Source: Cyanidioschyzon merolae (Eukaryota). From it: 64,000 nucleotides of DNA. The DNA lies in assembly GCA_000091205.1 (NCBI GenBank), contig AP006493.2; one strand, 5' to 3'. Shown piece by piece: positions 14,740 through 62,050 of this stretch. The notes under the pieces are model-generated. The model was not told where the DNA came from and made no database searches. It saw only the letters and a list, made by a program, of their open reading frames with translations. Positions within the stretch are counted from its first letter, which is position 1. Each line of letters starts with the position of its first letter. A program made the translations under genes and the position numbers.

Positions 14740-15885
14740 GCATTCTCGGCCGTTTTCTCTGAATGGCTTCTTCGAATCTATGCAATTTGGGTTCTCTTCA
14801 TCATTTTCAGCAAGATAATTCGCGACGCCGTCGAATACTGGTTCGTAAAAAACCCGAAATCCTTATGAGATTGATACGGATAACGCTCCACCCTTCAATG
14901 TTACCATCTCTCGGTATCGAGGGAAATCGTGGGTGCACCACTTCAAGGCGCTGGATTGACGACTAAAAACACGATGTCATTGCATGACGACAGCTACACA
15001 GGCTCATGCCGGAAGTTCCCTTAATTTCGCATTTCAACGATTCGATTCCATTTGAAACGCAAAGCATGTTCTATTCGTAGTCATCGACGAAATGGCTTTC
15101 CACGTCAGCTTGACATCTCCCAGGAGATACTCTCCCAGCGGCTTTCTTATCTTCCGCCTGCATGGGAGCGGTCACGGAGTAAACGTTGAGTCATCGCGGC
15201 GATCGTCTCCCGTGACCGGTGCTTCTCTATTTTGGACGAAAGGAACCTGTTCGGATCGAAATTTCTCGACGGGATCTCTAGCCTGGACTTTTCGTCTGGC
15301 ACTTGTTTCATCACCGACAGCCTCGAGCTCCAAGAACCATCAATAAAATGGAACAACGTGGGTTCGCGGTGCGGCAGGCAGAGCACTCGCCGATAGGGTC
15401 ATGCAGAAGAGGCCCGTGATCCTAGGATACGGCGCCAGGGGCGCAAGCGCAGGCGGAGGAGGATGCAGGGTATCGTGGGTAGCCTTCAGTACCCGTCAAG
15501 CGCGTTAATCGAAAACGATAAGCAAGGGTTCATGCGCAGCGAAGCAGCCCCAGAAGCAGAAAATGTGGCAGACGCGTAGCGCCATCGGACTGTAGGCAAG
15601 TGCCGACGCTGCGATGGGCCCGCGGAGGATTTGAACAACGAAGATGAGCATCATAACTGAAGCATCAACCGCAATGATTGCTTCTGCATGAGGTGCGTCG
15701 AAAAATGCCAGAGACATCGGAATCAAAACTCTGATGCTGCGATCAGCATCGTGTGACTGCTGACGACAGATCTCGAGGCAAAGGAGAGACCGGTGAATTT
15801 GAACCCGGTGATGCTAGTCAGGAAAAGAAAGCAGTGGACGAAATAGCCTAGAAAGGCATGTTTTGATGACAACCGGAACAGAAGC
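14740..15885 (-). repeat. R1-A: full-length copy (~1.15 kb) of the non-coding dispersed repeat family R1
   Basis: Collinear nucleotide similarity (~70-75% by eye) to 36110-37250, 49335-50520 and 61027-62050. Shared blocks include 'gtgactgctgac...gagagaccg', 'gaaatttcgatc', 'cgcgatgactcaa' and a 'ggcatgag' tail. Confidence 0.7.
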
Positions 15886-16468
15886 ATACACTAGCGTTTA
15901 CCGCAGAGTCAAACAACTGGACTCCGTTCGATTTTGTGCACAGATGCGTATCAGGCGCTGAGCAGTGGCGGCAGTCAGCGCAACAGCCCCCTTAGACAGT
16001 ACATCAGCTCCCATTCACTTGATTCGCCTCGCATCCGTTCCCGTAATATTGCTCCAAGCCGAACCAAGACGCATATGTCTATACTGCGGGAGCATCCTCT
16101 TGTATAAATACAGGACACCTGTTGCACAGACTCATTTGCTTATCGGTGAATATATTTTTCCCCATGCAGTATCCGTTCCCTGATGCCCATCTTCGTGCCG
16201 TTGGGACCTCAAACTAGGCAAAATGCGAGATACCCGAGTTCGTAGGAGAGACCAGCCACTCGCAAAAATCTATTGTTTGTCCATTGTAGCGTCCGTGTGC
16301 CAGGCCTCGTCTTCATGTTTTCGAAAGCATACGCATGCGAGACGCAAGCTTTGCGTTCCGAAGGAGTTTACGATCTAACACCTGCGGTTGCGCTCAGCAC
16401 AGACTTCGCAGGCCACCTGCTGTCGGTGCTTCGGGCGGATGCATCCGACTCATCCTCGAGCCGACGCC

Positions 16469-16718
16469 TTTTGTGGTACGGTAACGCCGTTCTGTCTCGG
16501 TGCAGCGACAGCACCGGCGCTGTAGGCGCTATTGCTGCCGCTTTCGGCAGGCTCGGCACACGATAGGACGTACGAAACGACCAGAATATCCGAGATGAAG
16601 TATAGGTAATATAACATGGGAGTAGGGGGTTGATGGATACCTCACCTCGCACTGAAAAAAATAACACAAAAAAGTAAGAAAAGAAAAATGCGCATAATCG
16701 GAGAACGCTGGCCTATGG
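16469..16718 (+). promoter_or_regulatory. Conserved upstream element, copy 1, ending ~14 bp before the lipid-kinase ATG
   Basis: Aligns with the reverse complement of 21550-21770. Blocks 'cgacagcaccggcgct', 'acgtacgaaacgaccag.atatccgaga', 'gggtaat..aac.tgg' and 'aatcgg.gaacgctggc.t.tg' are conserved in order. Confidence 0.45.
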
Positions 16719-16731
16719 AAACGTTTTGCCA

Positions 16732-18771: not shown

Positions 18772-19163
18772 AGGGCCCTGCTTGCGACGCTAACATCGCA
18801 TGCTTTATCCATTTTTACTGGGGCAGTGGAGGAAACCCAATTCCGTATTCACACCTGCAAGGCTGAGACAAGGGGCTCGGCAAGCGACGCAAGCAGTGCC
18901 CGCGTCATCCATTTTTATTGAAGCGGCGGAGGAAACTTGATCCTCTGTCAGCGCGTTAGCGGCAAGATGCCCAAACGCCTCGTGCACAGAGATAGCGAAG
19001 TAGCGATGGACCGTGGCGGCTCAGCAGGATCCATTGATTCGGATGCATCATCAGCGCGCTGCGTTAGGCGAATGTTCAGCAAGATAACGCAGTTGGAAGA
19101 CATCATTGCCGCAATCGGGGCCGTGGAGCTGCCCACACAATGGTGGACGTTTTCGTATGACCA

Positions 19164-21434: not shown

Positions 21435-21549
21435 CTTTCTTGTAGCAGCAGCAGCAGCGGCAGCAGCAGACAACAAGCAGACGGCTAACAGCTGAACCCC
21501 GATCTATAACGTTTCGATGAGAATGTTTCTTATTTGACAAAAATCTTTA

Positions 21550-21770
21550 CACAAGCCAGCGTTCCCCGATTGTGTGCTTGGTATCAGCGCGCAGTAAAGC
21601 ATCCGTCGTTCCACCTAATTCCAAGTTCCATTACCCATTTTTTCTCGGATATACTGGTCGTTTCGTACGTTCTATCGTGCGCCTAGTGCATGCTGTGGGC
21701 GTCCGCGGTAGCGCCAAGAGCGCCGGTGCTGTCGTAGCACGGGGACAGGACGGTTTTACCGTCCACAAAG
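21550..21770 (-). promoter_or_regulatory. Conserved upstream element, copy 2, ~115 bp upstream of the ataxin-2-like ATG
   Basis: Reverse complement aligns with 16469-16718 (see copy 1). Both copies have the same orientation relative to their downstream gene. Confidence 0.45.
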
Positions 21771-22645
21771 AGCGACGGCAAACGAGGGTAAACTGATACA
21801 AACGCGCAGACGCCTCCCAGCCTTTCGACAAGCCACCTACTATCAGCTTCGGCTTCTCCTTGCACACCTCTACCCCGAGAGCCTACCCCACAAAGTTGTA
21901 TCCTATCAGCCCCTCGGGTCTCTTCTTCAGCAAAGCATATCTCATGATATTGTTGGCGGCGTTGACGTCGCCGTTCAAGAACTCGATGCGGTTTACTGCC
22001 TCTACTGGAACTCATCAGCGCAAGAGTACCTCGAGCGCGTGCCTTCTTTGCCACCAAAGTCTCGATATCGTCCTGTCGGGCAAAGAATCCTTTTCTCGCG
22101 TATCTCTCTTCTTCTTCTTCGCTCGATGCTCGGCGAAAGTGGATTTTTAGCGGGTCCGAGCTGAATTCGTTGGGATTTTTAGCGTTTTCTTCGGCAGTCG
22201 ACGATGATGGCCCTCCGGGATCCCCAACTTCCATGTCTGTAGTGTTCCCTCGGATTTGTTAAGTTTACAAATGAACGCACGTTGAACATGTCTGCTACAG
22301 ACTGCGACGAAGCATTTGATGACACGCACCTGGGGACGGGACACGATTGCGTTGAAGAACTGCAGGAAATCGGGTAGCGGCCCGTGCTCCCCAGCGAGAC
22401 CCCATGAAGTGCAGATGACATGCAGGCCCTTGCGGCCGTCGCGGCGGGCGATTGCGCCCAGCGCGCCACCGACTGCTAATCGGTGCGTACACGGACACGT
22501 GTTCATGGGGCGCGCCGATCGCCTGAGCGACCGGTCGCTCGGGCGATCCGGACAGTCGAGGGGTCCGCGTGGCGGCGGGGCGCGCATGAGGCCCTGCGCC
22601 TGCTGCCCGCAACGCTGACCGCATGAACGGTGCTGCGTGTCCTGC

Positions 22646-24447: not shown

Positions 24448-24545
24448 ATTCCTTTAGACCTGAACAAGAATGGTACCCCTCAAACAACAAAAGCGCGCAG
24501 CAACAGTACACAGCGCACCTTTGGCACGTCGCCCAAAACGCCGAT

Positions 24546-29642: not shown

Positions 29643-32600
29643 ATGATCTGTTTTAGCCTGTTTCGCATAGTTTCCAAGCTGTCGCTTGCAGCACTCTTGT
29701 GGCTTGTACTGCATTTTCTTCAAAAAGAAATCCTCGGAACCTCGCCAGCTGTGCAGATGAATGTAGTCCCTGAGGTTGCTCGGGCATCAGGGAATACGTC
29801 ACCTCTTTTCCTTTTCTATGAAGAATGTGGGGGGGCAAATTGGACTCTGAATCGCTTTTGCTCGAGCAATTGTTGGACTTCAAACTCTTCTCCTTGTGGA
29901 AGTTCAGATGATTGGATATTTGTTGACTGCACTTCAGCTGGACAAGTTTCAGGGCTCCATCTTGAACATGAAAATATATATTGTGGAGGGATCCCGGAGG
30001 AACTTGCATCGCTTGGTTATCTAAGTACGCTGGACCTGAGTTACAACCCAGATCTTCGTACAGTAATACCAACTTGGATATCGAATTTCACGAATCTCGT
30101 TGAGTTAAAATTTGAGGATTCTGGATTCTATGGTGAGGTGCCTGATAGCATCTGTATGTTACGTAGCCTTTCTTCTCTCAAAGGGAGGGAAAATGATCTT
30201 TCCGGAACAATTCCTGATTGTATAGGAGAGTTGAAATACTTGCATGATTTAAGTTTCGCGAGCAATGAAATGTCTGGCCAAATACCCGATTCTATTGGAA
30301 ATTGCAGCAATTTATATTTCTTGGACCTTAGTAACAACAATTTCTCGGGAACACTTCCGGATAGTATCGTCTACATGAAGAACTTGCAGATACTCGACTT
30401 ATCATACAATAGCCTCGAAGGCACTCTTCCGGAACTCTTCGGATTCAGCGAGCTGCAATTGCTCCTTCTCGGTCACAACAATTTCAGTGGCACCATACCG
30501 GAGTTGCCTCCGAACCTAGTCGCCGTGGACTTCTCGAGCAACAATTTCAGTGGACAAGTTCCCATTCTGCCCTCTACAGTAACAAGCGCCAACTTTACCG
30601 GAAATCACTTCAGCTGCCCGATCCCATTGGGATCCATATATGACACGGCGTCATGCATATGTCCCGCCGGCTGGGCTGGTAACCGTACGACATGCAAACA
30701 GTGTAGTCCCGGCACTATCGCACCCACAGATGGTTCTAGTGTTTGCATGGCGTGCCCCAACGGAACGTTTGCAAATGCATCGACAAGCTTCAGATTTTGT
30801 GGTACATGCCCTGCGGGAAGCTTTGCTGTATCCCCAGCCGGAAACTGCTCAATCTGTCCAAAAGGAACCTATCAGCAGTCGCGCGGTAGTTCCCAGTGCA
30901 ATACCTGCGCCCCAGGCTATTTCACGGACGAACTTGGAGCGAGCTCCTGCAAAATATGCCTGGCAGGATCTTATGCAGAACTAGCTGGAAGCACGGAGTG
31001 CAAAGCCTGCGCCCCGGGAACCTACGCAGCGAGTAACGGATCGACTTCGTGTCAAGCATGCGCAGCGGGCTCCTACGCCGGCAACTATAGCTCTGCTACA
31101 TGTCAGATATGCCCGGCAGGATCTTATGCAGAACTAGCTGGAAGCACGGAGTGCAAAGCCTGCGCCCCGGGAACCTACGCAGCGAGTAACGGATCGACTT
31201 CGTGTCAAGCATGCGCAGCGGGCTCCTACGCCGGCAACTACAACTCTACAGCGTGCGAGATATGCCCGGCGGGATCTTATGCAGAACTAGCTGGAAGCAC
31301 GGAGTGCAAAGCCTGCGCCCCAGGAACCTACGCAGCGAGTAACGGGTCGACCTCGTGTCAGACGTGCAAAGCGGGCTCCTACGCGGGCAACTACAACTCT
31401 ACAGCGTGCGAGATATGCCCGGCAGGATCTTATGCAGAACTAGCTGGAAGCACGGAGTGCAAAGCCTGCGCCCCAGGAACCTACGCAGCGAGTAACGGAT
31501 CGACTTCGTGTCAAGCATGCGCAGCGGGCTCCTACGCCGGCAACTATAGCTCTGCTACATGTCAGATATGCCCCGCGGGAACGTATGCAGCGAGTGAGGG
31601 TTCAAGTTCATGTGAGCCCTGTCCACCGGGGAGTTCCGGGAACTCTATTGGATCCAAGTCATGCTCACTATGTCCGGCTGGCTCGTTCGCAGCTTCAAAT
31701 GGGTCCACTATGTGCCAAAAATGCCCAGCCGGTTACTTCAGTGACACGCCCGGGGCTGCAGCTTGCAAACCATGTCCTCTGGGCGTCTTTGCAAGTTCAG
31801 AGGGCTCTCGTGCGTGCTCCTTATGTCCGGCAGGGCAGTATGCGCCAGTCAATGGATCCGTCTTTTGCTTGAACTGTCCGCCGGGGAGCTTTTCGAATCA
31901 CTCTGGAGCGTCTACGTGCTACCAGTGCGGCGCAGGCTACTTCTCAGACACGCGTGGCTCCACGAGCTGTAAGCTGTGTCCTTTGGGAACTTTTTCCGCT
32001 GGACAAGGGCAGACTAGTTGCGAGGCTTGCCCACCTGGTTTCTATACAAACCAAACAGGATCGACCTCGTGCAGTTCCTGCGCTCCAGGGCATTATCAGC
32101 CCAGCACTGGCGCCGGCGGCTGCTTACCGTGTCCCGCTGGTACTCGGGCCGGCGCGTCCGGTGCTCCACGCTGCGATGCCTGCCCTTCGGGAACATTCTC
32201 TAACGTGACAGGTGCTGCAGTCTGCATAGAATGCCCAGCAGGTTGGTACTCCCAGGGTAATAGTACAAAGTGTATCGCTTGCGACACAGGGAGTTACGCG
32301 CAGTTCAATGCCAGCGGCTCATGCACAGAAGCGCCACCGGGGAGTTTTGTCAACAGTACTGGAGCGGCGTACTTCCAGTATTGTCCACCGGGAACATTTT
32401 CAAACCGGAGCGGTGCATCCAAGTGCGAACCATGTGAAACAGGAACCTTCGTGACTTATCTGGGCGCGACATCGTGCACAGCGTGCCGTGCGGGCTACTC
32501 CGCGCCTGCCAACGGCTCTGTGAACTGCACCGTTTGTCCGGCCGGTACATTTGCGTATACAGCCCCGGACGCTGCTGGGCTTGGGCGAGGGGCGTCCACA

Positions 32601-34848: not shown

Positions 34849-36109
34849 CCCCTGAGCTGTGTCACTCACTGAACAGGTGGCCCACGAAACGTGGAAGCGT
34901 TAAAAAGCAAAGATATCAACTAAACCAATGATAAACACAGAAAAGTCAAAGAAGACGCTTACAGCCCCTTCAAGCGGGACTGCCTCCGCGATTCAGAGCA
35001 CAGCAAGTCTCAAACCTGCTACGTCCTTCGAACCTTCCTTCTCGGGGCACCTCGTGCTTCTACCAACCCTCAACGGTCTTTTAAGACGCACGAAGCGCAC
35101 CAGGAGCTCGAATCTCTAACGAACAGAGCCCGAAAATGGATCTTTATCGTGTGTCTCTTTCAGGCGCCGCCTGCATCTGTGCGGGTTGTCATGTCGACCA
35201 GGCCGATTTCATGGCGGATGGCAGGGGCGCGGCTGCGAATCGAACGGAGGGCTGTGCGAAGCGCAGGCCCCGACCTATTTCTACGGCTGCGCATATGGAC
35301 ACGTGTCAGGGAAAACGATCTCCGCGCGTGCACTCCAATTCTGGCAGGCTGGTGCGTCACGGTCACATTGCTGCTCCACGCTCATGTCGATCGCGCTGCG
35401 TTCGCTGCTGCTTGACGTGACGCGGTATCGGTCGTGAGGGACAGATGGAGACGCAGAAGTAGGCACTGTGCACGAGATGCTCCACAGGTGCGGGACACGT
35501 TTAGATGTAACTCGAGACCCTAATTGGGAAATATATCAAACAAGAGATTGTGTGTCCCAAGTGCAAAGGCGCCCAAGACTCTCACGTTCGAGTGCGAGAT
35601 TTTCTCGTCGCTGAGAAACACTAGGTTTGCACCCAGAGGAGACGAGTAAAACTGTGTGCTTTGAGACGTGTAGCTTGGTTCCTGTGGAAGCCTTGTCTAT
35701 AAGACTTTGACATACGCATGCGACCGCGCCATTTTTCCCGGTCGTTGACTGACGAAGCTCGACAGTTCGACTTCCTTACCTGTAGAAAATTAACGACTCA
35801 CTCTGCACCTGCGCACTGCTGTACGTCATGGTTGCGCAGGCTGTACCGCGCATGAATACCAATTAAGCAAATAGGTAAGCTCGCTTCAACTATTACTGTA
35901 GTTGGAGGATGGCAACGGTTTCGATGAAAAGCAGAGCACAGGCCTGTGGGCTATGCCCTCGGGAGCTGTAGGACTTCGATCTGCAGCCGTGGAAAAGTAA
36001 AGCGGGGCACTGTGCTGCATGCTTTTGTTCATGTCTACTGATATTCTTTCCGAATTGTTTTCAGAGTTACTGCGTCGACATTCAAAGTGCAGCCGCAAGA
36101 GCACACGGC

Positions 36110-37250
36110 TCTGTACGGAGGTTTGCGATGATCCGGCGTCGTTTCGAGTCGCTCATTCAACTCGCTGTCGTTGGAACTCGTTCCGCCACCGGAATCACGA
36201 TGCTTTGCGACGCTCTCGAACGAAGATTCGTAAAATAACCGATCTGGTTATCCTGTTTGTACGCACAAGCCGTATCTTCACAGTTCCTTAATTGGAGCAT
36301 GCTCATATTACACGTTCTTCAAATTTTCAATCTTTCTAGTTAAAGGCAACTCGTGGGCGCAGCAATGCGATCCTCTGAATATACGAGGAAAACTACCAAT
36401 CGTCTTTGACGACTTTTTTACAAACTCACGCCAAAATTGCACTGAACAGCACATGAGAGATAATCGATGCCGCTCGAAACGCAAGGCGTTCTCTCTTTGT
36501 GGATATCAAAGAAACGGGATTCTACAGCTGCATGATGTCCCGAAAGGGATGTGCTCCTAGAGGTTCCGGTCTCTTTTGTTTCCATACAAAATCGTTCTCG
36601 ACCCGGACTTGAGTCATCGCAGCGATCGCTTCCAGTGGAGAGGGCGTCATCGCTTTGCAACATGATAGTATAGACCGATCGAAATTTCTCGGTTTGCTCT
36701 CCAGCCCGAGGGCTCTTTCCGATGCTTGTTCGATCGTGGACGAAATCGCACCCCATAAATACCATTTTGAATGGAACAGCACGCGCTTGCGCGTGCCACA
36801 GACAGCGTACATGTCGAAGAAATTGCCCAGTGGGACCCCGTGGTCTTGAGAAACGGTACGGGGCGTTGAAACGGAGAATGGCACCAGTGATAGCGTCCTG
36901 TGCCCGTCAAGGGTATGTACTGAGTAACGCAGTAGGCGTTCACGCGGCACAAGTCAGCTCTGGTAGGCGGAGGTATGATTGACATGTAGTAACACACGAC
37001 CACAACCAGGTGTCACAGCCGCGAAGGACACACCTACGCTGTACATAAAGACGATGAACCTGGCAAGGGAAGTGTAGATCCTAGCCTCCCTCTGTGCATG
37101 AAATGCGGAGATAACAGCCGGCAGCAGCGAAATCAGGACTCTAACGCCGCCGTCAACATACCGTGACTGCTGACAACGGAACTGGACGGACAGGAGAGAC
37201 CGACTAATTTCAGGCCGGTGCTTTCAGAGAGCGAAAAAAATTTGTCAAAG
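36110..37250 (-). repeat. R1-B: full-length copy of the R1 dispersed repeat family
   Basis: Collinear with R1-A, R1-C and R1-D. The overlapping small ORFs at 36418-37003 match R1-C ORFs in more than one frame, so conservation is at nucleotide level. Confidence 0.7.
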
Positions 37251-37980
37251 AACAAGCCCACAAATGCTGGTGTTCTTAACTGTGGAAAAAGATCCAAACT
37301 TTAGCTTGTACGCTCGTGTTAGAGTAAATGTTCCATTTTATTCTGACGTAGGTGTCGATGATCGACGAGCATCCGCTGAAAGTTCCACGATAGTGCAGAG
37401 CCTCGATCCGGTTGTAGTCCAGGGCGAAAGCATGTGGGGGCTCGGAATCCAATCAAAGACTTTGTGTCGTTACCACTGATGCGTGTTCCCATGGTGCACT
37501 GTAGGTGCGTCTTATCGGACTCCCAGGGATAGCTACCAGCTGTCGATAAGCAGCGGTAATACCATCGTGTACCCACGCACGCTCTAGAGAATCCCGTGCG
37601 CCTCTGATCCACATGCCAACAAAATTGCGAGAAAAAAGTGAACAATTTTCTACTGGTGCCAATAGCACTCAGAGATACGCGTCCAGCCATTCACCAGGAT
37701 AAGGTGCACAACGCGTTGCAGGGCGCTGTCGCGTTCCAGTTCCACGCTTGGAGCAGCCTCGAAGCACTGCGCCGCATTTGATGGCGCTTCGCGCGCCGAC
37801 TGGACGGTGCCGTTCCAACGCGCAGACGTTAGGGAGGGTCGCTCTCCGCCTCGACAAGCCGTACCCAGTAAACCTCTCGGGAGAGTTCCTTGTGCGAGAC
37901 AAAAGCTTACCTTACTCGAGATCCTTCGATTCGTACGCGGTAACCCGAGACGCTTCATAAGTGAAGTCTTGCTTTTCTCC

Positions 37981-43078: not shown

Positions 43079-46000
43079 AACATACCGACAGATATCGTTG
43101 GGCTTCAGCAAGCCCGCGGATTGGCGGCTCGATGGCACCGAACGCAGCCTCGTAAGAAATGTGCCAGGCTGATTGGCCACCAGGGCACTGATCGTGTTCT
43201 TGATTCCTGATCGTTGTCGAGGATAGATTATAGAGGAACTCCAGATGCTTTTTATGTTCATACAGCGGTCTTGAGTGCCCTTTCAGTCTAGTCCGTGCAA
43301 GCGGATACTTGAGCTTTCGAAGCACCGCCACAAGCGCTAACTGACACACGCGCTACCCGCGGCACATGCCTTACCTCTCGCGGAACTTGATACGATTACT
43401 CCAATGGACTGCTTTGGCAGTGTTCACGAGAACTTTGGATTGGCTTTGAATTGGGTTAGAGCACGGCAGCGTGGAGAGCGCACGCGGAATCCCCGAAACT
43501 CACGGATGTCAATGTCCTGGCTAGTCGTTTATATGTACGTCGCATTCGCCCCGAGATACGGATTCGCGCGCCACTGATGCTTGCTGGTCACGTCGTTCTT
43601 TCGACGGATATTAACCTTGTTCCAATGAAATGCGCCTGCGCGAATCGGCGAGATCCAGGTTGCCACCAACGATTACGGAACGCAATGTGCTGATATCCCA
43701 GCTCTGGAATGCCAGGCATGGTTCGGCTTGTATGTAGAATCTACGGGAGATTAAGAAAGTTTTGGTAAAGCCCACGAAAGTGCTGCTGGAATCAAGCTCG
43801 CTGTCGCTCCTCCTTCCGAAAGTCATTCGCACTGGGTCCCGTTCTACGCAGCCTCACTGCAGTAGCTTCAGGTACCTCCTCACCCTAGGATCATTTGCGA
43901 ACCTTCTGTATTTATCTAGTACACGCTCTGCGGGTGAGTCACCTGAATCCAGATGCATTTCTGCATGGGAGTCGCCGTAGTCTGGCGACGCAACGAAGCG
44001 ACATCAGAATCCGACAGTGCATCTTGAGGCCACACATGCTCCAGTTGTCTGCGCACTGCGGTTCGTTCAATCGCTCAATGCCTTCCAGGTGTTGATAATA
44101 AACCGTCCGGATGACGCAGAGGAGACCGCACACATATCACTGAACAAAAGACCCCAATGTCTGAGTCTTCGCGTTGTGCTGAGTTGACGTGAGTGGCATA
44201 CGTTTTCGTGGGGTGAGTCGTCCTTTCTCTTTGCGCATTGCGCGCGTTTCGCAAAAACAGGACTAGTTCGCCTCTGTGTACACGGATTCCTTCACTTAAA
44301 CCCTTTCCAATCCATACATATTGTGAGAAATACTGGTGAGGAAGCGATACATCGAAGAGGTTCCGAACAGCTGATAATGACGGCGATAGACCCGGATGAA
44401 CAAAGAAACAAGCACGTTTCTTCGAGAGATCGTCACTCGTTCAACAGAACACGTCCAATCTCGTACTGATATCCAAAACTTGTTGCGACACAGACTTGTG
44501 TTTTTGTCTCTTGATCAAATTTCGTTCCCATCAAACTGTATCCCTGTATATTGGCACTCGAACACAAAAACACTACTGTTCCTAAAGAAGAGACAAGGGA
44601 CCAAAACGACTGCAATTGCCCTGCAGGCCATTCAGTAGTGCGTTCGCCTACGATTTGCAATACGAACTAAATGTAAATATACATCGTGCTTCGTAGAAGC
44701 ACTTCGTGGCTTCTGATTTCCACATTCTTCTGACCTGCACGTAGACCGTGCCACTTTCCGTCACTCTCAAGCGGGCAAGGAGCGCGCTGCAGCGATTGGC
44801 GTTGAGCGGCTCTTGGTGCCAGGCTACTACCCCTGGTTCCGTCGACTCAAATGCGTCTTCTCGCGAGTGAAAGGAAACATCGAAGCGCATGGATCCATCG
44901 AAGGGTCGTTTGAATCCACGACACCCAAAGATGCACGACGCCATGAAGAATCGCGTAGCGTCTTTCTCATGGAAGGCGCATATGGCTTATCTCTCCCCAG
45001 CGTGCATCAGTATGCAACAGTTCGTTGGAGAGTTCCGGACGCTGGGATGCTATCTGTCTCAATTCGTCTGGAATTTTTCGACGAAGCATTTTTGCTAAAA
45101 TATGACGGGTGCTCGGGACGGAAGATACAATACGGGCCGAGCAGAGGATCAGATATTCGCTTCAAACGCTCACCAGGGGGTTGCGACGCGTCGCCGTGCC
45201 GTGTTGGCGATCGGGGTATCGAAAGCGCAGGCCCCGGAAACTCTCATACCAACATTTTTGACCAAAAGCATACGTGGGTCAATGCCGAGTGCTTCATGGA
45301 ACGTACCCATGGGCGTCCTTTGCGTATCCTGCTGAGCGTGATCAGGGAGAACTGATGACTGGGATTTCCGGCTGTCTCGATGGACGCAAATGACAAGCTG
45401 GTGGCGGCAGTGATCGATGCGGTAGCACGTGCGGAAGCGACATCGCAAAGACAGCAAGAGTCTCCCGAGGTATTCCATGCGTATTGTCTGGAGCTCGGCC
45501 TCGGACCGACGGACGTCGTATCCAGGGGATTGTTGGGAGGCCATGCTGCGTTCTTTACGCCTTGCGCCATTTTGTGTGCCTTGACGGAGACCGGCATAGC
45601 ATAGCAGACTCGTTGCTCGAACGCAAGCGCCCAAGCCTTGTCACGCGTCTATCGATATATAGTTCCCATGTATCAAACCGAGGCCCGTTGGATCATAGGA
45701 GGCATGTGTATGGTGTAGGTACTCCCCACTGAGGCTCGATTGGTCTTTGCGAGCGAGCACAAAGCTTTCGTGCAACATCGCGGAGACCATTAGCTGAGCT
45801 CATGCACAGTTTCTCGCTTCCGCGGACGAAATGGAAAGAACTTGACGAGGGCCATGGAGACCGACGGAATACGAGTCTGCGCGTACTTCGTGAGATTCGG
45901 TAAATCTAGTCCAGATGCGAGCAACGAGACTCGTCCTCAACTGCGCAATGTCGACGAAGAGAAGGACTTTATGTAGAGCGTGGATCCCATGCTCAGGGGG

Positions 46001-47394
46001 GTCGTGGCTCTCGCCATGACTGTTAAGCAAGCGGAGGATGCCGAATACCTGAAAGAAAAGGTAACGAAGCTGTTTTCGTTCCCCAGGGATCGATACGGTC
46101 TTGCGTCAACCCTGACAGACACCTGGATGCATACCAATACATGAAACGACGGAATCAAGAGCAATCTCGACGTTCCGGGCATCGTATCGAGCTGAAGCAG
46201 ACCCTCCGTGCGCTTCTTTCAGAGAGTACGCCATACCAAAAACGGCTCGCACGCATGTTCTTTTAGTAGAAGTACGTGAGACTCTGTTGGGGTTACTTAA
46301 CGTCTTGGTTGTACGAAGGCAAGAAGTGTATATTCGCAAACTTGCTCAAAGAGCTGGAAGAGGAAATGATCGGTTCATTGCGTTATCTGTTGGTCGCCTT
46401 TGGCGCTAGAGGTGCTGTAGCGTGCACGGGTCGGGTTCCTGCTTTTATAGAGAAGGTCGTCGAACGAGTGCAGGAATCGATTCTGTGCCATTCTCGTGGA
46501 TGCCTCTAGGACGATGTACGCGGATCACGAGCGGAAACTTGCGATGGAAATTGGTACAGGAGCAAGTGCGAAACAGAGACGGATGGACGAGACGGCGTGC
46601 GTGACGCTCTCCGTACGCCAGATGGCGATGCAATCCAATGGAGGCGGCTTGCTGTGACGTGACTCCACTAGCACTGACGCGCATGTGCACGCCTTGCATC
46701 GAGGCCTGACCGCAGTCATCGAATTCCCGGCAATAATTCGTGCCTCAGGAGCGTCCATCAGCTTTTTCTCTAGCAAACTTTCGAGATAATCGTTTAGCAC
46801 TTCGTGCGGGCAGTGAAATGAAACATTACAGGTTTTTGATGGAAAACCAGTGACCCTGAGAGAGCGATCTGATTCTTGCCTGGAGCAAAGCACTGGTATG
46901 GTACTGGTCAGCAATCTGGCAAGGCTGGAACGCAGTATACATACACAGAGAACTGTTTTTCTGTGCAAATGTCGATCGTTAACAGTTTCCCGTTATTCAA
47001 TATCACTAGGTATATTCGATAAAAAAGGGATCACCGTTCAAAAAAGCGAGGATTTCCCGCAAACATTCCTCGGCTGCAAATTGCATGGGCAGCACATGAA
47101 CTGCATCCGATACATGCAGACCGGCCATCTGAGCGATGTACACGTTGTCTATGCGGGCGTATCGAAGATCGAGCGCACGCATCAACCATTTGAGCAAGTT
47201 TACCACCAGGACGCCGTGATCTCGTTCATGCAAACAAGACGGACCAGACGCACGCCGACCGGCCTCCTCCGCGATCCCCTCGTTCATGCGTCTGCACGTC
47301 GCGGCTGAGAAGATCTCATAGACTACGACCGAGCAAAACCCCGTGTCACCTGAGATCAACAGTCGCGCGTCTGGACGTCCCGGTTGATGCGACC

Positions 47395-48720: not shown

Positions 48721-49334
48721 ATCTGCAGCAAACGGGTGCACCGCAAAACGTGCACGTTAAAATGATTAGTAGCGATTGCGACGTACAACCGTGGCCCATA
48801 CGAACTGTGAAAGCGCGCGCATCGATGCCTGCTACGCGCCGCGTTTGTTCACCGCATGGCCCTGGAGGCAAAGGTGTCATGCGGGCTGGATTGGATACCC
48901 GATGGCGAATTCGGCACCCGAACGTTCATAGGAACGATGCACTACCTCCAAAGGCAAGTCGGGGAGATGGATAATGAGACTCGCGGAATTTCCGCCATTC
49001 GTGGCGCCCTCATTAGATGCCAGACACAGTCGCACACGTTGAGGTCTCTGGATAGCCTCGACGATCCGACACGATGGAAAAAACGAGTCGCACATGGGGC
49101 GCTGGCGGCACCCTGGTGCCCTGGGCGGGAAACAGAGTGAAAGGGAGTCATGCTGGAGCGGCCCAGGTGAGAGGTATCAATGTGTCGTCCGCCATACCAC
49201 GGTATTTGTCGTGATTTTGACTTATTTACGCACAAGCACGTCACCATAAATTAGAACAGGCCCACTAAACCAGGCGTGCGTGCTAACGTTTTTGTTCCTT
49301 TTGCGGGGTTATCAACAACGTGCTTTGTGGGAAC

Positions 49335-50520
49335 GTTTTGCGACCGCTTCCTGTTCCCCCTCTCAAGGCCGGCTTTGTCTGCGGAAGCCGGTTTCTCCTT
49401 TCCCCCCAGTACCGTTGCTAGCAGTCTAATGATGTTGATTGGAGCGTTAAAGTCCCGATTTCGAGGGTTCCAGATCTTGCCTACGCGTCTGATGCACATG
49501 CGGAAGTTGCGATCTACACTTCGCTTGCCTTTTGCATCTGCTTTGAGCATGGACTCGGCGCGCACTGTGCAGCGCTGACGCTTGGCTGTGGTCCGGTGTT
49601 TTCATATATGCAATACACCATGTCCCTAGCCTCCTTCCTCAAGGGTCGCCTTGCAGCGCGTAAACCATTGCTTCATCCCTCGGTACATACCCTTGACTGG
49701 CACAGAAGGTTCGTGTGGATGCCTTGCACCGTTTCGTACCAGGCTCTGTTTCGTGTGTGATCACGCGCTTTCTCTGGGCGATATCTTCGGCGAGTACTCT
49801 GTCCGCAGCATGCGGAAGTGCATGCTGTTCCACTCGATAAAGGGCTTGAGGAAACCGATCTTGTCCATGACGAAACAAGGACCCGGAAAGAAAGTCCAGG
49901 CTCCAGAAAAAGTAGAGAAGATTCGATCCACCTTTACGCTCTTTGCTTGCAAAGCGATGACGAACTCTCCAACGGAAGCGAACGCTGCGATTACACAAGG
50001 CGGAGTCCAAGACCTTTCTGCACACAAACGGATGACACAGAAGCCACTGGAAGCATACCTGCGAGGCGCATCATGCTGCTGTCGGGTGCTGCTTTGTCGA
50101 TGCCTTGAAACAGGGAACGATTTGTCTTCCAAATGGCGTTGATTGTTTGACTTGCCAAATTAAGTGTGGTTGCGGCATGGGTTTGTGAACATCTCGTCAA
50201 GAGACGACGTCAATTTTATTTGCCCCGCCAATCCAGGGGCTCGAATTGCTGCGCCCGCGAGTTACAGTGAATTACAAACATGGGTAACTTGAAGAATGCG
50301 TTATTTGAGCGCGCGAGACGCGAGGAAAGGAGTAACGCGAAGGCTTGTACGTGTGAATCGGATACTGGTATTGGTCACCGTATGAAATCTTGTTCGAGGA
50401 CGTCGAAAATCGCCTCGATGCGGATGACGTACAGAATTCCATCGGGCGCGCGTCGAACGAACCGTTCCGAGCGGACGACCAAGCATCCGAACCCGACACG
50501 TGCATCCCTATGCACTCATT
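49335..50520 (+). repeat. R1-C: full-length copy of the R1 dispersed repeat family
   Basis: Collinear with R1-A, R1-B and R1-D (e.g. 'tacatacccttgactggcacag', 'aaagtcccgatttcg', tail 'attgctgcgcccgcgagtt'). Confidence 0.7.
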
Positions 50521-51057
50521 GCTTCAGTTGGCATGTAGAGGCTCCAAATTTATAAAAAAAAATTCCGAAAGATCGACTGCTAGGAACTGAGCGAGTAGCT
50601 GAGCGTTCCATTTGCGTCTCTCAGAAGACTGAAAGCATTGACAGCGCTCTGGATCCGTGGATAACCGTCATCGCCTGCGAGATGAAAGCAATGCATTCCT
50701 CCTTGCTGTGAGGTCGGACGCTCACAACGTCACTGGAGCGCCCCCTGAGCGGCCATGCGTGAGTTGCACGCATTTTTTCAGCTTTATTTGTGTCAGCGGA
50801 GTCGGCAGATACGCCCTCTGCAGGGACCTACACGGTTCGCCTTGTTTCCAGAGAAGAACTTTTACGATCTATACTGACTTGTAACGTTCGATAGCGCACA
50901 GAAAAGAGACTGGAATCATCGCGCAGCAGCTCCAGCGCAAACCTACGCTGTACCCGATGACGACCCAGGCAGATAGGCAAAGCACGTCACACACAAACGC
51001 AGCGGCAATCTAGAGCATGCCATCGCTGGCGCGCGTGTGGAGATTCTTCACGATCAC

Positions 51058-51093: not shown

Positions 51094-51261
51094 AATTCCA
51101 GCGCAGGCGCAGCTGCAGCGCACCACGTTGCGACGCTAAATCATCCGTAGGATACCCGCGCCTACGGGGACACTGGCACCTCATCGAAGCGGATTCGCTC
51201 GATAATCTTCCTCTGTATAGGAGGGAGTTCTGATACGTGCAATGAGCTCAAACTCGCTTTT

Positions 51262-52641
51262 GTGTGGCGGCCTAAACCGCGATGTACAGAAGAAAGCCTC
51301 AACCAGCTGTTTGGCTCGTTCGGCGTTTGTCGGATCAACCTCTTTCCGACGTACGCGTTCATCGACTATGAAAGCCCGCAAGACGCGGAGGAGGCTTTTA
51401 ACCAAATAAATAGCGGTGGACCGCTTTCAAATTTAAACGGTTTACAGCTTCGTGTAGAATGGAGCAGACGCTCTCGCAAGGGATATGCCTCGACGGAGCA
51501 ACGCGCTGGTGAGGCGTCATCTGGCGCTGGCGCATCGGGTGGCTGCTTCGAGTGCGGATCTATGGACCATCGCGTGCGAGACTGCCCTGTACGTCAGGAG
51601 AAAGAGCGTTTGGGTGGTGGCGGTGCAGGCCGCGGAGCCGCTCGGTACGGCTCCGAAGGCAGGCGTCCACTAGAGGGCGGGCCCGGTCGGGCCGGCAGCG
51701 GTGGCGCTCGCGTTTGCTACAACTGTGGCGGCGTTGGACATACGTCGCGTGAGTGCCCCTCTGAGAGGGGTGTTCGCGGCAACATGGGAGATCGCGGGCC
51801 TGGCAGCTCTGGCCCGCGCGGGTATCCAAGTACTGGGCGCGGCGCGGAGACGCGCTCCTGCTTCAAGTGCGGTGAGAGCGGCCACCTTGCGCGCTTTTGC
51901 CCAACAACATCTGCTGCGGGGCCCGATGGAAACGCGTATGGCAGCAGAGGACGCCGTGAGAACTCGAGGCCTGATCGTCGCGATTGGGGCTCTGGTCATT
52001 ATCAAGAGCCGTACAGCCGTGACAGGGATTCTGACAGAGCGCAAAACGTGTCCGAGGGTGGCGCAGGCTTTGGAAACCGCAGAGGGCGCGAAGACGATCG
52101 TTACGACTTTGGCAATGAGCTAAATGAAGAGCAACAGACGTACGAGAATCGCAGGGAGCGACCGTTCCATTCCGAGGGCGTTGAAGAAGACGAGCACTAC
52201 AGTGAGCATTCGCATGACGAAGGCTACGGAGATTACGATGACGACAACGCGGGCTCGTCTGTAGGGCAAAAACGACGTCTCGCGGGCGATGCATATGACT
52301 CGGGACACCACGACGGAGGTTCTGATGCTTCGCATGGCGATGGTAACAGTGATGATGACGGCGATGATGGTTATCAGCGAGATAGTCCAGGCAGCTCTTA
52401 CGGTGCAGACGAAGACCATGACGGGCGCGCTCAAGTGAACGGCTCGTACAAGCGCTCTCGGCATGGAAACGAAGGGCGAGGCTCGGAGCGTCGTGAGGCG
52501 CCTTCTGACTATGCGCACAGCGACTGGAATTCGTTGACGCTGAAGGATCTCAAGGCAGAGGCCGAGAAACGGGGTATTGATACAACCGGAATGCGACTTA
52601 AAAAGGATTACGTAGAGGCGCTCGAAAACGCGGCAGCGTGA
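51262..52641 (+). CDS. RRM (C-terminal half only) + three CCHC zinc knuckles + Arg/Gly/acidic region + C-terminal SAP-motif protein; 5' end unresolved
   Basis: RNP1-like 'YAFIDYE'. Knuckles 'CFECGSMDHRVRDCP', 'CYNCGGVGHTSRECP', 'CFKCGESGHLARFCP'. SAP 'LTLKDLKAEAEKRGIDTTGMRLKKDYVEAL'. The track start is GTG. There is no in-frame ATG or RNP2 upstream, so a 5' exon is suspected. Confidence 0.55.
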   Translation: MWRPKPRCTEESLNQLFGSFGVCRINLFPTYAFIDYESPQDAEEAFNQINSGGPLSNLNGLQLRVEWSRRSRKGYASTEQRAGEASSGAGASGGCFECGSMDHRVRDCPVRQEKERLGGGGAGRGAARYGSEGRRPLEGGPGRAGSGGARVCYNCGGVGHTSRECPSERGVRGNMGDRGPGSSGPRGYPSTGRGAETRSCFKCGESGHLARFCPTTSAAGPDGNAYGSRGRRENSRPDRRDWGSGHYQEPYSRDRDSDRAQNVSEGGAGFGNRRGREDDRYDFGNELNEEQQTYENRRERPFHSEGVEEDEHYSEHSHDEGYGDYDDDNAGSSVGQKRRLAGDAYDSGHHDGGSDASHGDGNSDDDGDDGYQRDSPGSSYGADEDHDGRAQVNGSYKRSRHGNEGRGSERREAPSDYAHSDWNSLTLKDLKAEAEKRGIDTTGMRLKKDYVEALENAAA

Positions 52642-52698
52642 TCGGGCTACGGAGCAGAGGCGTCTTACTTGACGAGTTCCTGCGAGAGATGGTAACCA

Positions 52699-52736
52699 GC
52701 TGCTGCTGCTGCTGCTGCTGCTGCTTCTGCTGCTGA
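52699..52736. repeat. (CTG)n microsatellite in the 3' flank of the RRM/CCHC/SAP gene
   Basis: 'ctgctgctgctgctgctgctgctgcttctgctgctg'. Confidence 0.9.
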
Positions 52737-57614: not shown

Positions 57615-58298
57615 ATGGATACCCACAAGTGCAAGTTATGCTCGAGTTCAGCGAGGCTGGGGTTCATCCTGACGTTGCCCTGTTCGCAAACGTCGGCGTT
57701 CTGCATCAGTTACGTCACGAGCGTGGACGAGCACAGACCACCGGGGCTCCTGACGCGCCTTGCCGGCACTCGGCGGCGCCTACGTGCAGGGACACTGCGA
57801 GCTGAGGGTGGCTCAGAAGACTCGAGAACAGCAGAGGAGTCGAACTCAAAGGTCGATGGCTCTAGTCACAGCTCGGGCAGTGTGCACGGGTACGGGGAGC
57901 CGGTGCCGTCGATACCGACCCGGCCGTTTGACGCCTCAGTAGTGCATCCGTCCTGGTATATAAACATGCGGCCCGACAATCCTTGCGTGGTTTGTTTAGG
58001 AGAAGGCTACATACGTTGCATGCATTGCTACGGGGCAGGGTACGTGGTCGTGGGGCCCGAGCCCGAAGATTTTCCCGAACGAGACCGTGAAGTCTGCACT
58101 GTTTGTTACGGAGAAGGCCGGCATCAATGTCGCCGGTGTGAAGGCACGGGCAAGCGTCCCATGTGGATCATCGACCCGGCAACTCGAGAGCGACGTTCGA
58201 TATCGCTGGAGCGGGACCTGCCTTGGAAAAAAGCGCTGATGGATCTCGCAGAAACAGAGTTGCGACGACAGGAATCGGAAAAGTCGAAAGATGCATAG
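57615..58298 (+). CDS. DnaJ-type (CxxCxGxG) zinc-finger domain protein, possibly organelle-targeted
   Basis: 'CVVCLGEGYIRCMHCYGAGYVV' and 'CTVCYGEGRHQCRRCEGTGKRP' are two CxxCxGxG pairs, as in BSD2/LQY1-like assembly factors. The N-terminal region is rich in R/S/A. Coordinates are approximate (±1-2 nt). Confidence 0.4.
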   Translation: MDTHKCKLCSSSARLGFILTLPCSQTSAFCISYVTSVDEHRPPGLLTRLAGTRRRLRAGTLRAEGGSEDSRTAEESNSKVDGSSHSSGSVHGYGEPVPSIPTRPFDASVVHPSWYINMRPDNPCVVCLGEGYIRCMHCYGAGYVVVGPEPEDFPERDREVCTVCYGEGRHQCRRCEGTGKRPMWIIDPATRERRSISLERDLPWKKALMDLAETELRRQESEKSKDA

Positions 58299-61026
58299 TG
58301 TGAGCAGGGAGTATCGTGCGCTTTTATGGACTCAGGGGTGTTTGATTTTGTTCGAGAAGCAGGACCCGACTCTTGTGCTTCGTGGCAAGGGCTCTTGGCC
58401 GGCCGCGACCCTCTACAGAGCCAAAGCGTTGTGCACGAACGGCTTCATCCAGAACAAAGCTGGTGACCACGACACCGTGAATGTTCGCTTCGCCTCGGAA
58501 ATTCCTGCAAGAATTTCTGCGAGAGCACACGGATTGTGCGTTCGTCTACGTTGGTCGTGCCCGATACTGGAGACTCGAATCGCAGCCGCGCACGCCTTTA
58601 TCGTATGCGATTGCGAGACGCGGATCGCTCATCAGGGAAAAGCGCTCGCGACGCATCCCGCGAGTCGACCTGGAGCACGCTTTGTCAAAAATCCCCCATG
58701 TTCACGAACCACGAAACACAACTAGGCATGCGCGGCGAGATCTGGTGTTCGCAGAGCGCGGTGGCCTGGTTTCTAGTCACCAGAGTTTACCGGCTTTTTC
58801 AAATCGAACTGAATCGAAAGCATTGTGTTGGGAACTAGAGGTCTAGGTGGTGCTGGTGATTTCACTGGCGGTGCGATGGTGCGCAAGTACGATGTTTCCG
58901 AGACCGCGTCGGGGCGATCCCGTCGCGGTGCGCTAGCACTGCCACGTGATGACGCGGCATGAATGCTGCTGTTCACACGAATTGGGAATGATCCCTAACT
59001 ACCCTACACCGTTCGTACACAGCATTCAACGAATCATAAATTTGTTGCTTTTCAAAATCCGAACATAACTGTTGTGCGTTTAAAAACACGTGATCTCTGC
59101 ACGGACCAGAGTTCGCATAAGCGCAACGGGCATGATTGCGTGATGAGAGGTCATGCGGCATGCGTTCGCGGCACAGCGACATGCGAGGTGCCTATGAAGT
59201 ACCGCGCAGCGTATCTTGTTCTGTCTGTAACCAATACATGGGAATCGTGACGTGAGATGCAACGCAAACTCGTGCGCGTCAAAAGTATCGTTCTTTCATT
59301 GGGCGTGACGAAGTGAGCGGCAGTTATTTCATAAACAGCATATGCATGACAGTGGAGCGCAAAAATATCCGCGAACATGTAAGGTACTTATTTACCCGCG
59401 CACAGACGCCTCCCAGCCTCTTTTGACAGGCCAATTGCTGTCGTTTCAGCTCCTTTTTGTACAATTTGAGTCTGAGAAGCTGGTCGAAAAGGCTGGACCG
59501 CATCAGATCCGCGAGTCTCGGCATCAGCATCGCACATCGTCTGATATCGATGGCGGCGTTCAAGTCTCGGTTCAGAGACTCCATGATTTTATTGACGCTG
59601 GTTGAACTCACCAATGCAATGATTGCTGCGGCCTGTGCACTTTGCGAGACTGCAGTCACGTTATCGGCTCGTCGGGCAGATTCCTTTCCCAGACGATAGC
59701 CACTGTTCGATTGCATCCTCTTCGTCACTCGCGATTTATCGCTGGATGGTCGGCGACGAGAGAATTTTTTGTCGAAATCCGAGATACCGGGCCTCCAGGA
59801 CCCTCAACTTCGATGCCCATAGGCGTCCACTGGATTTTTTATTTCTTCAAAATGAACGCATTTGTTGATTCCCTCAGGTGCGGAGCTTCGCGGAGCAAGA
59901 AGGACCCTCTGAAGAGAGATGCAATGTGCCCTGGTCTGTCAAAGAGTGCTCAAAGCTTCAGCGATTCGCTCAGTTGAACGATCAGTATGTTTTACGATAG
60001 AAAACACTCTTTCGATACGGTTGAATCACGGTGGGCATGTAGGAATGAAAAGCAGCTCTATCCCTAGAGAATGAGCAAACGCACGAGCGCAATCGGACTG
60101 GTCGAGTGCCACATAGTCCAGTTGAAGGATGTCTCCAGATTTCACGTGAAAAGTTCTCAATGATTCGTCAAAGTGGTTTGTGCTGCTGTACGAGCGCTCT
60201 CTACGAGCGAAACTGAGTCCGTTACTTGAATCCAGTGCAGCTCGAACAGAGGACGATGTCGTCGTCCTTTTCGAGTTCGCTCATACACACAACGGGCGCC
60301 CAGCTCCGCGAGTGCCCATATGCGCTCCGACCGTTTCATCCGGAGCATGTATCATCGAGTAGGACGAATGCGCTGTCGTCCTGCAAGAAGGATGTGCACT
60401 TCAGTGCGAAATCGACAGTGTGTTGTTCAGTGCGGGATTTTCTCTGTTAGAAGCGTGCTTTTTGTTTGTTCCTCCGTTTCTCTTCATTAACGGTCGTATC
60501 AACGGTACGCAATCTTCAGATCCTGTCGCATATTTGGTAATATTTTGTAGACAAGGCGTGGAGTGGAATGGATTGACAAGAAGAAAAATTTTTCGGCTGC
60601 GTCGAGTACATTCGGATTTGGTTGCGCGGCGTTCACGATTCGGCGTACGAGAAGCGTAAATCACTTGCCAGCTGACCGTCGCATATCCGTTTTGGACAAG
60701 TAAGACGATTTCCGCAAGGCAGCTGTGGTATCATAAAGTTTTTCTGTGACCTTTATCGAAGCTCTCGTCTACGTTGGGTTTGTTGAACGCCTGCTAGAGA
60801 AACGAAGGAAAATCGAGAATGGCTCGGTGATACATGTAGTCCAGAAATCACTTTTCTGTGTATTACTGCCCAGCATTGGCCATGCGTTGCCAAGGCGCTC
60901 CGTCGAAATCCTTTCGTATCAGCATGGAATTGAACGGGTTTACCTGGCGAACCCGGGCGAATACTCTAAAATGATGGTGACTTCCCAGAGTCACGAACGA
61001 CAGTCCTCACGCGCCTTTTCTACGAT

Positions 61027-62050
61027 TGCTTCCTGTTCCTCTCGCTTATTTACCGCTTGAAATACACCAGAATCTCTTTCCCCTCAGGTCCCGTGGTCAG
61101 CGGTAGAAGGATCTTGATAAGAGTATAAAAGTCCCGATTTCGCAGTTTCCGGCCTTTGACGACGCATGTCGTGCACTGGCAGAAGTCGCGGTCTAAGCCT
61201 CGCTCCAATTTCAATTTCTTTCCGGACAGCATTGGCGAGCCCTTCACAGCGATGGCACCTGAATCTAGTCAGGTATTCTCGTGTGCCGACCATGCATCTT
61301 CCGTCTGGCGCCGCCCTGAGACAAGTGAACGCTTGCTTCATCGCACCGTTCATGCGGTTTCGGGGTAAAGGGGGTTCCCCTCGATGCCGTATTCTCCGTG
61401 TCCGCTTCCGTTGCCAAACTCTACAACGAGGGTCTTGGTCCGGTTGATCGCTTCGGCGAGTAGCCTGTCCGCAGCACACACAAGCGCACGGCGTTCAATT
61501 TGATGGGGAATATGTGGAATTCGATAATTTTTCACGATGAAACATGTACCGGAAGGAGTGCCCAGGCTGGAGATCAAGTCGAGAGATTCGGATCCGTCGA
61601 CGCTGCTTCCGTGCTAGACTGTTACGCATTCTCGATGGGAACCAGTAGCCGAGGTGGCTCAAGTCCGACTCCAAGACCGTTTTTTATGGATGCAGAAGAG
61701 ACTGGAGTTTTTGGGAGCAGAACCCGGAAGACGTATCTTGCTGGTGTCGAATTCTGTTTCTTTGGCGCCCACAAAAATAAAAGGATCTGCGTTTCAAACG
61801 GGATCGATTATTTTGCGTGAGCTGTTCAGTGCAGTTTCGGCATGAGCTTCTAAACAATTCGTCGAAAGATAACGTCGTGTGGTTTGTCTCGCCAATGCAC
61901 CTGCGCGAATAGCGGTGCCTACGAGTTGCTTTGGAGCAGAAAGATCGAAAAATCGTCGAATGCGTTTTTCGAGCATGCTGTGCCTGAGGCATCGAGAAAA
62001 TTGCAGGCGCATACCTATGCATTGGATTCTGAAATCTGTTATTTTAAGAA
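61027..62050 (+). repeat. R1-D: copy (~1.0 kb) of the R1 dispersed repeat family
   Basis: Collinear with R1-C: 'gcttcctgttcc', 'aaagtcccgatttcg', '...ctgtccgcagca...', and tail 'gcgtttcaaacgggatcgattat...gttcagtgcagtttcggcatgag'. Confidence 0.65.

Follow-up and report, generated by a model that had tools for sequence, protein, structure and literature searches.

Fanzor1 genes, which encode the TnpB-like nucleases of eukaryotes, have been documented within Mariner-type elements that carry terminal inverted repeats (TIRs) and TA duplications; PUl-1, for instance, spans 3620 bp and has 24-bp TIRs and TA target sites (PMC3627910). For the red alga Cyanidioschyzon merolae, the survey of Bao & Jurka 2013 lists one Fanzor family (PMC3627910), and the 253 copies of a 'WSV486-like' repeat reported in its genome (PMC1955436) were later recognised as the Fanzor1 element CMe-1A (PMC3627910). 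The alga is cited as nearly transposon-free, with eight class II elements and 0.7% of the genome (Nozaki 2007, PMC1955436), and P-MITE reports no MITEs (miniature inverted-repeat transposable elements) in it (PMC3964958). The current study concerns R1, a dispersed repeat family in a stretch of 64,000 nt of C. merolae contig AP006493.2 (assembly GCA_000091205.1), referred to here as the window. At a probability of roughly 93%, we consider R1 to be an old, non-autonomous class II element of the IS630-Tc1-mariner type, derived from a Fanzor1-carrying transposon. We found no description of the R1 family as such in the searchable literature, a search that did not extend to Repbase, while the kind of element is already known.

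A metagenome scan returned 79 loci (L-numbers below), mostly on Cyanidioschyzon contigs from hot springs, whereas scans of viral contigs found no R1. On the metagenome loci nhmmer gave 121 matches, 63 of them full length, leading to a set of 40 distinct copies, i.e. the four full-length copies of the window (c1 to c4) and 36 others from hot-spring metagenome contigs. The consensus of this set is 1360 nt long and restores two reading frames:

ATG at consensus nt 72 to about nt 779: transposase frame, Tc1/IS630-type, Pfam DDE_3 and HTH_33
About consensus nt 779 up to the stop codon at nt 1316: Fanzor frame, Fanzor/TnpB C-terminus, Pfam Cas12f1-like_TNB

The first frame encodes the helix-turn-helix (HTH) and DDE_3 regions of a Tc1/IS630-type transposase (DDE_3, E 5.1e-10 and 39.8 bits, above the gathering score with a cutoff of 28.6; HTH_33, E 5e-4); it is cut off after the second catalytic Asp, and the third catalytic residue is absent. 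The second frame, open over about 335 codons, encodes the C-terminal zinc-ribbon and RuvC-III portion of a Fanzor1 nuclease (Cas12f1-like_TNB, E 8.3e-8 and 32.7 bits, above the gathering score with a cutoff of 26.3). Single copies are too broken to yield a Pfam match in raw six-frame translation, and only the 40-copy consensus worked. A preliminary description of the window had accordingly seen neither a transposase nor TIRs; both are present, and too degraded to be seen in single copies. Translated on the strand of the ancestral genes, the copies reveal the TnpB-like C-terminal motifs CxxC...CxxC...RNRDFNAxINI, and hhalign aligned the four frame-corrected window copies with a Fanzor1 profile from RuvC-II to RuvC-III at a probability of 92% (P 7e-7), against P 0.3-0.7 for antisense frames, P 0.64 for the reversed sequence and P >= 0.054 for 30 column shuffles. 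The database relatives of the transposase all contain DDE_3, and some are named Tc1-like or IS (insertion sequence) transposase. Searched as a profile against solved structures, the frame-corrected alignment returned nothing at E <= 10. RNAcode-like scoring and BLOSUM/stop frame scoring left the strand undecided, as antisense frames scored as well as sense frames. The motif 'YSPxxSPxE', considered as the third catalytic motif, proved to be a coincidence, namely an other-frame reading of the Fanzor 'QRALARAAD' region.

Intact relatives show both halves of R1 in one element. Locus L065 encodes a 326-aa transposase followed by a 780-aa Fanzor1 on the same strand, in an element of ~3.6 kb. Against the R1 consensus (tblastn), its transposase matches over aa 2-255 with 38% identity (E 5e-54), the similarity fading after about aa 233, and its Fanzor matches over aa 545-760 with 43% identity (E 5e-33); 48% identity is reached with the L079 Fanzor (E 2.5e-29). 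Nothing in R1 corresponds to the Fanzor sequence before about aa 545, so that R1 lacks a complete Fanzor nuclease (WED, REC, RuvC-I); since only the last ~180 codons remain, R1 carries a fragment of a Fanzor gene and not a Fanzor gene. These alignments indicate that R1 is the composite element minus ~2.1 kb: absent are the end of the transposase, which contains the third catalytic residue, then the spacer, and the Fanzor part up to about aa 545. Intact or near-intact elements of this kind, with a Tc1-like transposase and Fanzor1, were noted at L064/L065, L070, L079, L089/L091, L090 and L055; both genes were found at L089/L091, and the Fanzor gene at L079, L070, L055 and L090. These relatives come from metagenomes other than the Cyanidioschyzon-rich hot-spring samples and have a GC content of 43-56%. 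L079 holds in addition a second, CMe-1-like Fanzor tail at 7955-8389.

Within the window, R1 comprises four full-length copies and two inverted 5' fragments (A and B). Strands below are those of the ancestral genes and are opposite to those of the preliminary description; the termini of the full copies were set by TIR anchoring, and "projection" denotes projection from the 40-copy alignment.

14605..15950, + strand: R1 copy c1, full length, 1346 bp (nhmmer E=0; 5' flank TCTA followed by CATCC...)
14679..15342, + strand: c1 remnant of a Tc1/IS630-like transposase, HTH and DDE_3 up to the second Asp (projection; consensus Pfam DDE_3 E 5e-10)
15342..15894, + strand: c1 remnant of a Fanzor1 C-terminus, with GYG strand, two CxxC motifs and RuvC-III NRDFNAA (projection; consensus Pfam Cas12f1-like_TNB E 8e-8)
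35984..37354, + strand: R1 copy c2, full length, 1371 bp (nhmmer; TIR anchoring)
36065..36765, + strand: c2 transposase remnant (projection)
36765..37304, + strand: c2 Fanzor1 C-terminal remnant, motif ...CMKCG...RNQDSNAAVNI visible in translation (tblastn)
49233..50629, - strand: R1 copy c3, full length, 1397 bp (nhmmer; TIR anchoring)
49839..50549, - strand: c3 transposase remnant (projection; tblastn with the L065 transposase over 50549-49680, E 1e-4)
49283..49839, - strand: c3 Fanzor1 C-terminal remnant, RNRDFNAPINI (tblastn with L065 and L079 Fanzor over 49839-49386, E 1e-10)
60911..62290, - strand: R1 copy c4, full length, 1380 bp (nhmmer; 5' flank CCTA followed by CACCTGCG...)
61505..62213, - strand: c4 transposase remnant (tblastn with the L065 transposase over 62216-61527, E 2e-10)
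60966..61505, - strand: c4 Fanzor1 C-terminal remnant (projection; included in the hhalign alignment with the Fanzor1 profile)
7986..8421, + strand: fragment A, left TIR and first ~430 nt of R1, transposase HTH region (nhmmer E 8e-125; 5' flank TATA)
8405..8840, - strand: fragment B, again the 5' ~430 nt of R1, in inverted orientation and tail-to-tail to fragment A (nhmmer E 3e-50; BLASTN to c2)

The intact L065 and L079 proteins match c2, c3 and c4 directly (tblastn E 1e-4 to 2e-10), the matches in c2 lying at 36726-37202 with the Fanzor1 of L065 (E 7e-9) and L079 (E 4e-10). Copy c1 is the most decayed of the four. The existence of the family and the collinearity of its full copies, both claimed in the preliminary description, are borne out by self-BLASTN (E 1e-55 to 1e-128, far above chance), MAFFT and the nhmmer profile (E = 0 for all four). 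Its measurements needed revision: the copies, given as ~1.15 kb, run from TIR to TIR over 1346-1397 bp (~1.37 kb), the earlier coordinates falling inside the true units; their pairwise identity is 56-62% (59-64% in BLASTN high-scoring segment pairs) instead of ~70-75%; the single tail fragment placed at 8130-8390 is fragment A, next to which the inverted fragment B (E 3e-50) had been missed; and the family occupies ~9.9% of the window instead of ~8%.

The low identity of the copies also bears on the possibility that the similarity was created by faulty assembly or by flanking segments duplicated in recent times. Repeats are indeed present, and an unrelated pair of 561 bp with 99% identity also lies in the window. 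The R1 copies, however, share only 56-62% identity, their similarity stops at the TIRs with unrelated flanks beyond, and the same four loci were recovered in independent metagenome assemblies at ~99.3% identity. We regard the chance of such an artefact, which the preliminary description had raised, as next to negligible.

The end alignments of the 40 copies define TIRs of ~25 bp, with CACCTGTGTCAGATTAAAATGGAAC at the left and CACCCATGTCAGAATAAAATGGAAC (reverse complement) at the right, which agree at 22/25 positions. The right TIR of c2 is well kept and reads CACCTACGTCAGAATAAAATGGAACA on the reverse complement. The intact relatives share this end motif: L065 has TA followed by CAACCGTGAAAATTAAAATGGAACAC at one end and TA followed by CACCAGAGAAAGTAGAAATGGAACAC at the other, and L070 has the exact motif AAAATGGAACAC downstream of its Fanzor gene. 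An exact TA flanks 7/39 left ends (P 3e-4) and 9/39 right ends (P 5e-6), against a background in which TA makes up 3.4% of the dinucleotides of the window. Terminal repeats and a signal of target-site duplication, which the preliminary description had listed as signs of a transposon and against RNA genes, are thus present.

All 40 copies cross the deletion junction with an indel of 0-3 nt, and this single common junction indicates descent from one deleted master. In the transposase frame of the consensus, a premature TGA is the commonest codon at its site (13/40), which indicates that the master was already non-coding. Mean identity is 0.73 to the consensus and 0.57 between copies, where a star-shaped burst predicts 0.56; this agreement suggests one burst, after which the copies decayed independently. 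Every copy contains 2-12 frameshifting indels, in-frame stops are found in most (median 4 + 3 per copy), and, measured against the consensus, the transposase half has a ratio of non-synonymous to synonymous substitution (dN/dS) of 0.87 and the Fanzor half one of 0.78, so that the copies are pseudogenes that have evolved in a nearly neutral manner. The preliminary description took the conservation to be at nucleotide level and not protein-coding, which is right for the present copies, while their protein-coding origin had remained hidden. The multi-frame matches between small open reading frames (ORFs) on which it relied are real, all six frames matching at similar levels, with the difference that they stem from frameshifts in decayed coding sequence.

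One might instead suppose that R1 is a living, fast-evolving family of protein-coding genes whose stops lie within introns. Near both element ends the substitutions recur with a period of three bases, and an intron-like stretch, GTAAAA...polypyrimidine-AG, lies around nt 240-355. The apparent intron is in fact transposase sequence that aligns in frame with the intact L065 protein, and introns are known in only 26 C. merolae genes (PMC1955436; PMC5405695). Moreover, the frameshifts lie at differing places in 40/40 copies, the two halves are in different frames, the master already contained the TGA and a protein database search with frame-corrected translations found no relatives. We therefore hold a living gene family to be extremely improbable.

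Several observations weigh against a transposon origin, or at least fit it less well. C. merolae itself yielded no intact autonomous copy; the intact relatives stem from other metagenomes, and of a less-deleted Cyanidioschyzon copy there is only a hint (L042/L045). The TA duplications are statistical only, most individual flanks being mutated, and in the window exact TA occurs at just 2/8 full-copy termini, plus fragment A. The dN/dS values lie slightly under 1. The reconstructed ancestral 3' 288 nt fold somewhat better than shuffled sequences (z -2.7), which the matching 3' end of L065 does not (z -1.1). Finally, when 10D was compared with metagenome strains (~99.3% identical), c2 showed 3.6 single-nucleotide polymorphisms (SNPs) per kb, against 14.6/kb in adjoining intergenic DNA. 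In the same comparison c3 had 17.8/kb, other intergenic DNA 14.4/kb and third codon positions 7.0/kb, and another transposable element remnant ranged from 3.8 to 11.9 SNPs/kb between two strain sets. This swing indicates that the low density of c2 is local heterogeneity and not consistent constraint; with c2 low and c3 high, strain SNP density proved noisy as a test of constraint.

The last two points are those that could favour the other option left open by the preliminary description, namely that the copies are structured non-coding RNA (ncRNA) genes or intergenic cis-modules under selection at nucleotide level. The copies lie in intergenic gaps adjoining gene ends, and at the fragment pair, c1, c2 and c3 nothing is annotated: in C. 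merolae 10D these are flanked by BAM80460/61 (fragment pair), BAM80461/62 (c1), BAM80471/72 (c2) and BAM80475/76 (c3), consecutive accessions which show that the annotation has no protein at these copies. In addition, similar 'WSV' repeats in this alga have been reported as transcribed (PMC1955436). RNAalifold on the 40-copy alignment, however, returned the open chain (0.00 kcal/mol) in every 150-nt window on both strands, so that the structure check gave no sign of a shared fold, and Rfam had no match in the whole window at gathering thresholds; ARAGORN found no tRNA there. Each copy is ~27% off the master with many indels, c3 diverges between strains no more slowly than other intergenic DNA, and two decayed protein genes with TIRs account for the whole R1 sequence. 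With the stops, frameshifts and dN/dS values described above, we find this explanation very improbable, and of the two earlier options it is the old non-autonomous transposon that stands. Nothing supports a present RNA function of R1, though the Fanzor 3' end may once have held the scaffold of a guide RNA.

A weaker form of the same idea is that some R1 relics were co-opted later, as pieces of promoters or terminators, as Polycomb targets or as sources of Fanzor guide (omega) RNAs. The right TIR and the 3' end of the Fanzor gene are retained in R1, H3K27me3 is found on about half of the annotated repeats in C. merolae (PMC5405695), and the SNP density of c2 is low. The lack of conserved structure and the near-neutral decay over the whole element speak against it, and we consider such co-option quite improbable.

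We propose the following history for R1 as a derived transposon. The ancestor would have been a composite of ~3.5 kb with the order TIR, Tc1-like DDE transposase, Fanzor1 (eukaryotic TnpB-like) and TIR. One internal deletion of ~2.1 kb would have joined the transposase, just past its second catalytic Asp, to the last ~180 Fanzor1 codons in a different frame, while both ~25-bp TIRs survived. The resulting 1.37-kb derivative, with the third catalytic residue gone and a premature TGA, would have encoded no active enzyme. Transposase from autonomous relatives probably recognised the R1 TIRs in trans and moved the element into TA sites, mostly intergenic; one burst would have been followed by near-neutral decay to ~73% identity to the master and ~57% between copies, leaving relics that presumably have no function at present.

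In TnpB and Fanzor elements the right TIR and the 3' end of the nuclease gene encode the guide (omega) RNA. It is conceivable, if unlikely, that R1 owed its success to a deletion that spared both the TIRs and the Fanzor 3' end with its omega RNA coding. Were this the case, R1 would be a eukaryotic counterpart of the bacterial guide-RNA-bearing non-autonomous elements, exploiting two enzymes in trans, with the Tc1-like transposase moving it and Fanzor1 serving in homing or retention, and some copies might still yield omega-like RNAs with flanking host sequence as guides.

Fragments A and B deserve separate mention. Tail-to-tail, they form a foldback-like unit of ~855 bp (7986-8840) with left TIRs at both outer ends, a unit which could itself have been mobile. 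The arrangement is also found in a metagenome strain (L057), and it is old, since the similarity between the two arms does not exceed that of other R1 copies. Both fragments break at consensus nt ~425-435 (8405-8421 of the window), a recurrent breakpoint: at L031/L034 an R1 copy is interrupted there by a nested insert of 1.5 kb (L031 1785-3316) that contains a CMe-1 tail and a piece of another Tc1-like transposase. The site contains a perfect 6-bp hairpin, GTCGTC-CCTT-GACGAC.

Other old repeats share the window with R1. The published 3169-bp consensus of CMe-1A was tried as the source of R1 and rejected, as it matches five other places of the window and zero R1 copies (BLASTN); likewise, the published CMe-1 protein maps elsewhere in the window and not on R1, and the CMe-1 Fanzor family hidden Markov model finds only the RuvC-III motif in six-frame translations (E 0.04). 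The CMe-1A pieces are 69-80% identical to the consensus:

16453-16626, - strand: CMe-1A piece
21535-21779, + strand: CMe-1A piece
21802-22053, - strand: CMe-1A piece
59403-59619, - strand: CMe-1A piece
59765-59863, - strand: CMe-1A piece

The copy at 59403-59863 is internally deleted, consensus 869-962 being joined to 2863-3083, which suggests that Fanzor elements of this genome commonly give rise to deletion derivatives. A third Fanzor1 lineage has left two ~2-kb remnants, which lie at 11339-12388 (- strand) and 45815-46503 (+ strand) and have 26-29% protein identity to CMe-1 (E 4e-16 and 8e-12). They are 57% identical to each other in DNA, with a wider match of 11163-13172 to 46971-44931, and take up two large gaps, one at 11-14 kb and one at 43-47 kb; they are unrelated to R1 at BLAST level, and no other Fanzor remnant of the window was accepted as its parent for the same reason. 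The 561-bp inverted repeat mentioned above (2335-2895 and 11128-11688) looks like a recent duplication. In each arm lies the C-terminus of a Fanzor1 remnant that has diverged (CMe-1 aa 589-702), and the arms bracket a segment of 8.2 kb, whose inversion the repeat could permit and which contains fragments A and B together with genes for a sugar transporter, an aquaporin and XRN. Further diverged pieces, 58-68% identical, adjoin c1 and c4 (14055-14440 with 60379-60763; 13619-14166 with 44925-44377; 59393-60358 with the L031 insert). Several old transposon families thus make up the intergenic gaps of this region as a mosaic.

The large ORFs of the window encode ordinary eukaryotic proteins (HAP2, TAF6, XRN, ataxin-2-like and aspartyl-tRNA synthetase). 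Twelve of these products match 10D proteins in the range BAM80460-BAM80478 exactly, and the window is nuclear DNA of that strain. A gene for a 1328-aa leucine-rich repeat (LRR)/ephrin-receptor-like protein contains five 153-nt tandem units, 66-93% identical, at 30795-31706 and has the highest between-strain SNP density among coding regions (9.8/kb). The CCHC/RRM gene at 51262-52641 is annotated with 359 aa in 10D (BAM80476) and predicted with 466 aa by gene callers on metagenome strains; it has three indel sites between strains, and its start or frame in 10D may be mis-annotated or variable.

R1 fills ~10% of the window and is represented by at least 40 distinct copies in Cyanidioschyzon contigs. 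This abundance indicates that the class II content of C. merolae has been underestimated and that part of its 'intergenic' DNA is transposon wreckage. R1 also shows a second, older Fanzor1 lineage in the ancestry of C. merolae, with a Tc1/mariner vehicle, clear TIRs and TA sites, whereas the known CMe-1A family has no classified vehicle. In practice, the consensus can be used for masking in annotation, promoter studies and gene-targeting designs.

The closest described systems are PUl-1 of Pythium ultimum and PGv-1 (Bao & Jurka 2013, PMC3627910), whose layout is that of L065 and of the reconstructed R1 ancestor, with ~3.6 kb and TA duplication; as in L065, both genes of the Fanzor1-Mariner/Tc1 composites lie on one strand. 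In contrast to PUl-1 and PGv-1, R1 is internally deleted to 1.37 kb, contains no complete gene, exists in dozens of copies and resides in a red alga. CMe-1A occurs in the same genome and is likewise Fanzor1-derived, old and dispersed in intergenic DNA, but it shares with R1 only a remote protein homology confined to the RuvC-II/III region, and unlike R1 it measures 3.2 kb, lacks TIRs and a transposase and is younger (~80% identity to its own consensus). With respect to its transposase half, R1 belongs to the same family as the IS630/ISfu1-type insertion sequences and Tc1-like transposases (DDE_3, PF13358), having DDE_3 and a winged-helix HTH; it differs from the bacterial IS630/ISfu1 elements in its eukaryotic host, its Fanzor1 partner and its deleted third catalytic residue. 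Finally, R1 resembles maize Ds, which derives from Ac, and the Stowaway-type Tc1/mariner MITEs, in that the TIRs and the TA target preference were kept while coding capacity was lost by one deletion, and in that amplification probably took place in trans. Compared with typical MITEs it is larger (1.37 kb) and still carries ~1.2 kb of recognisable coding wreck.

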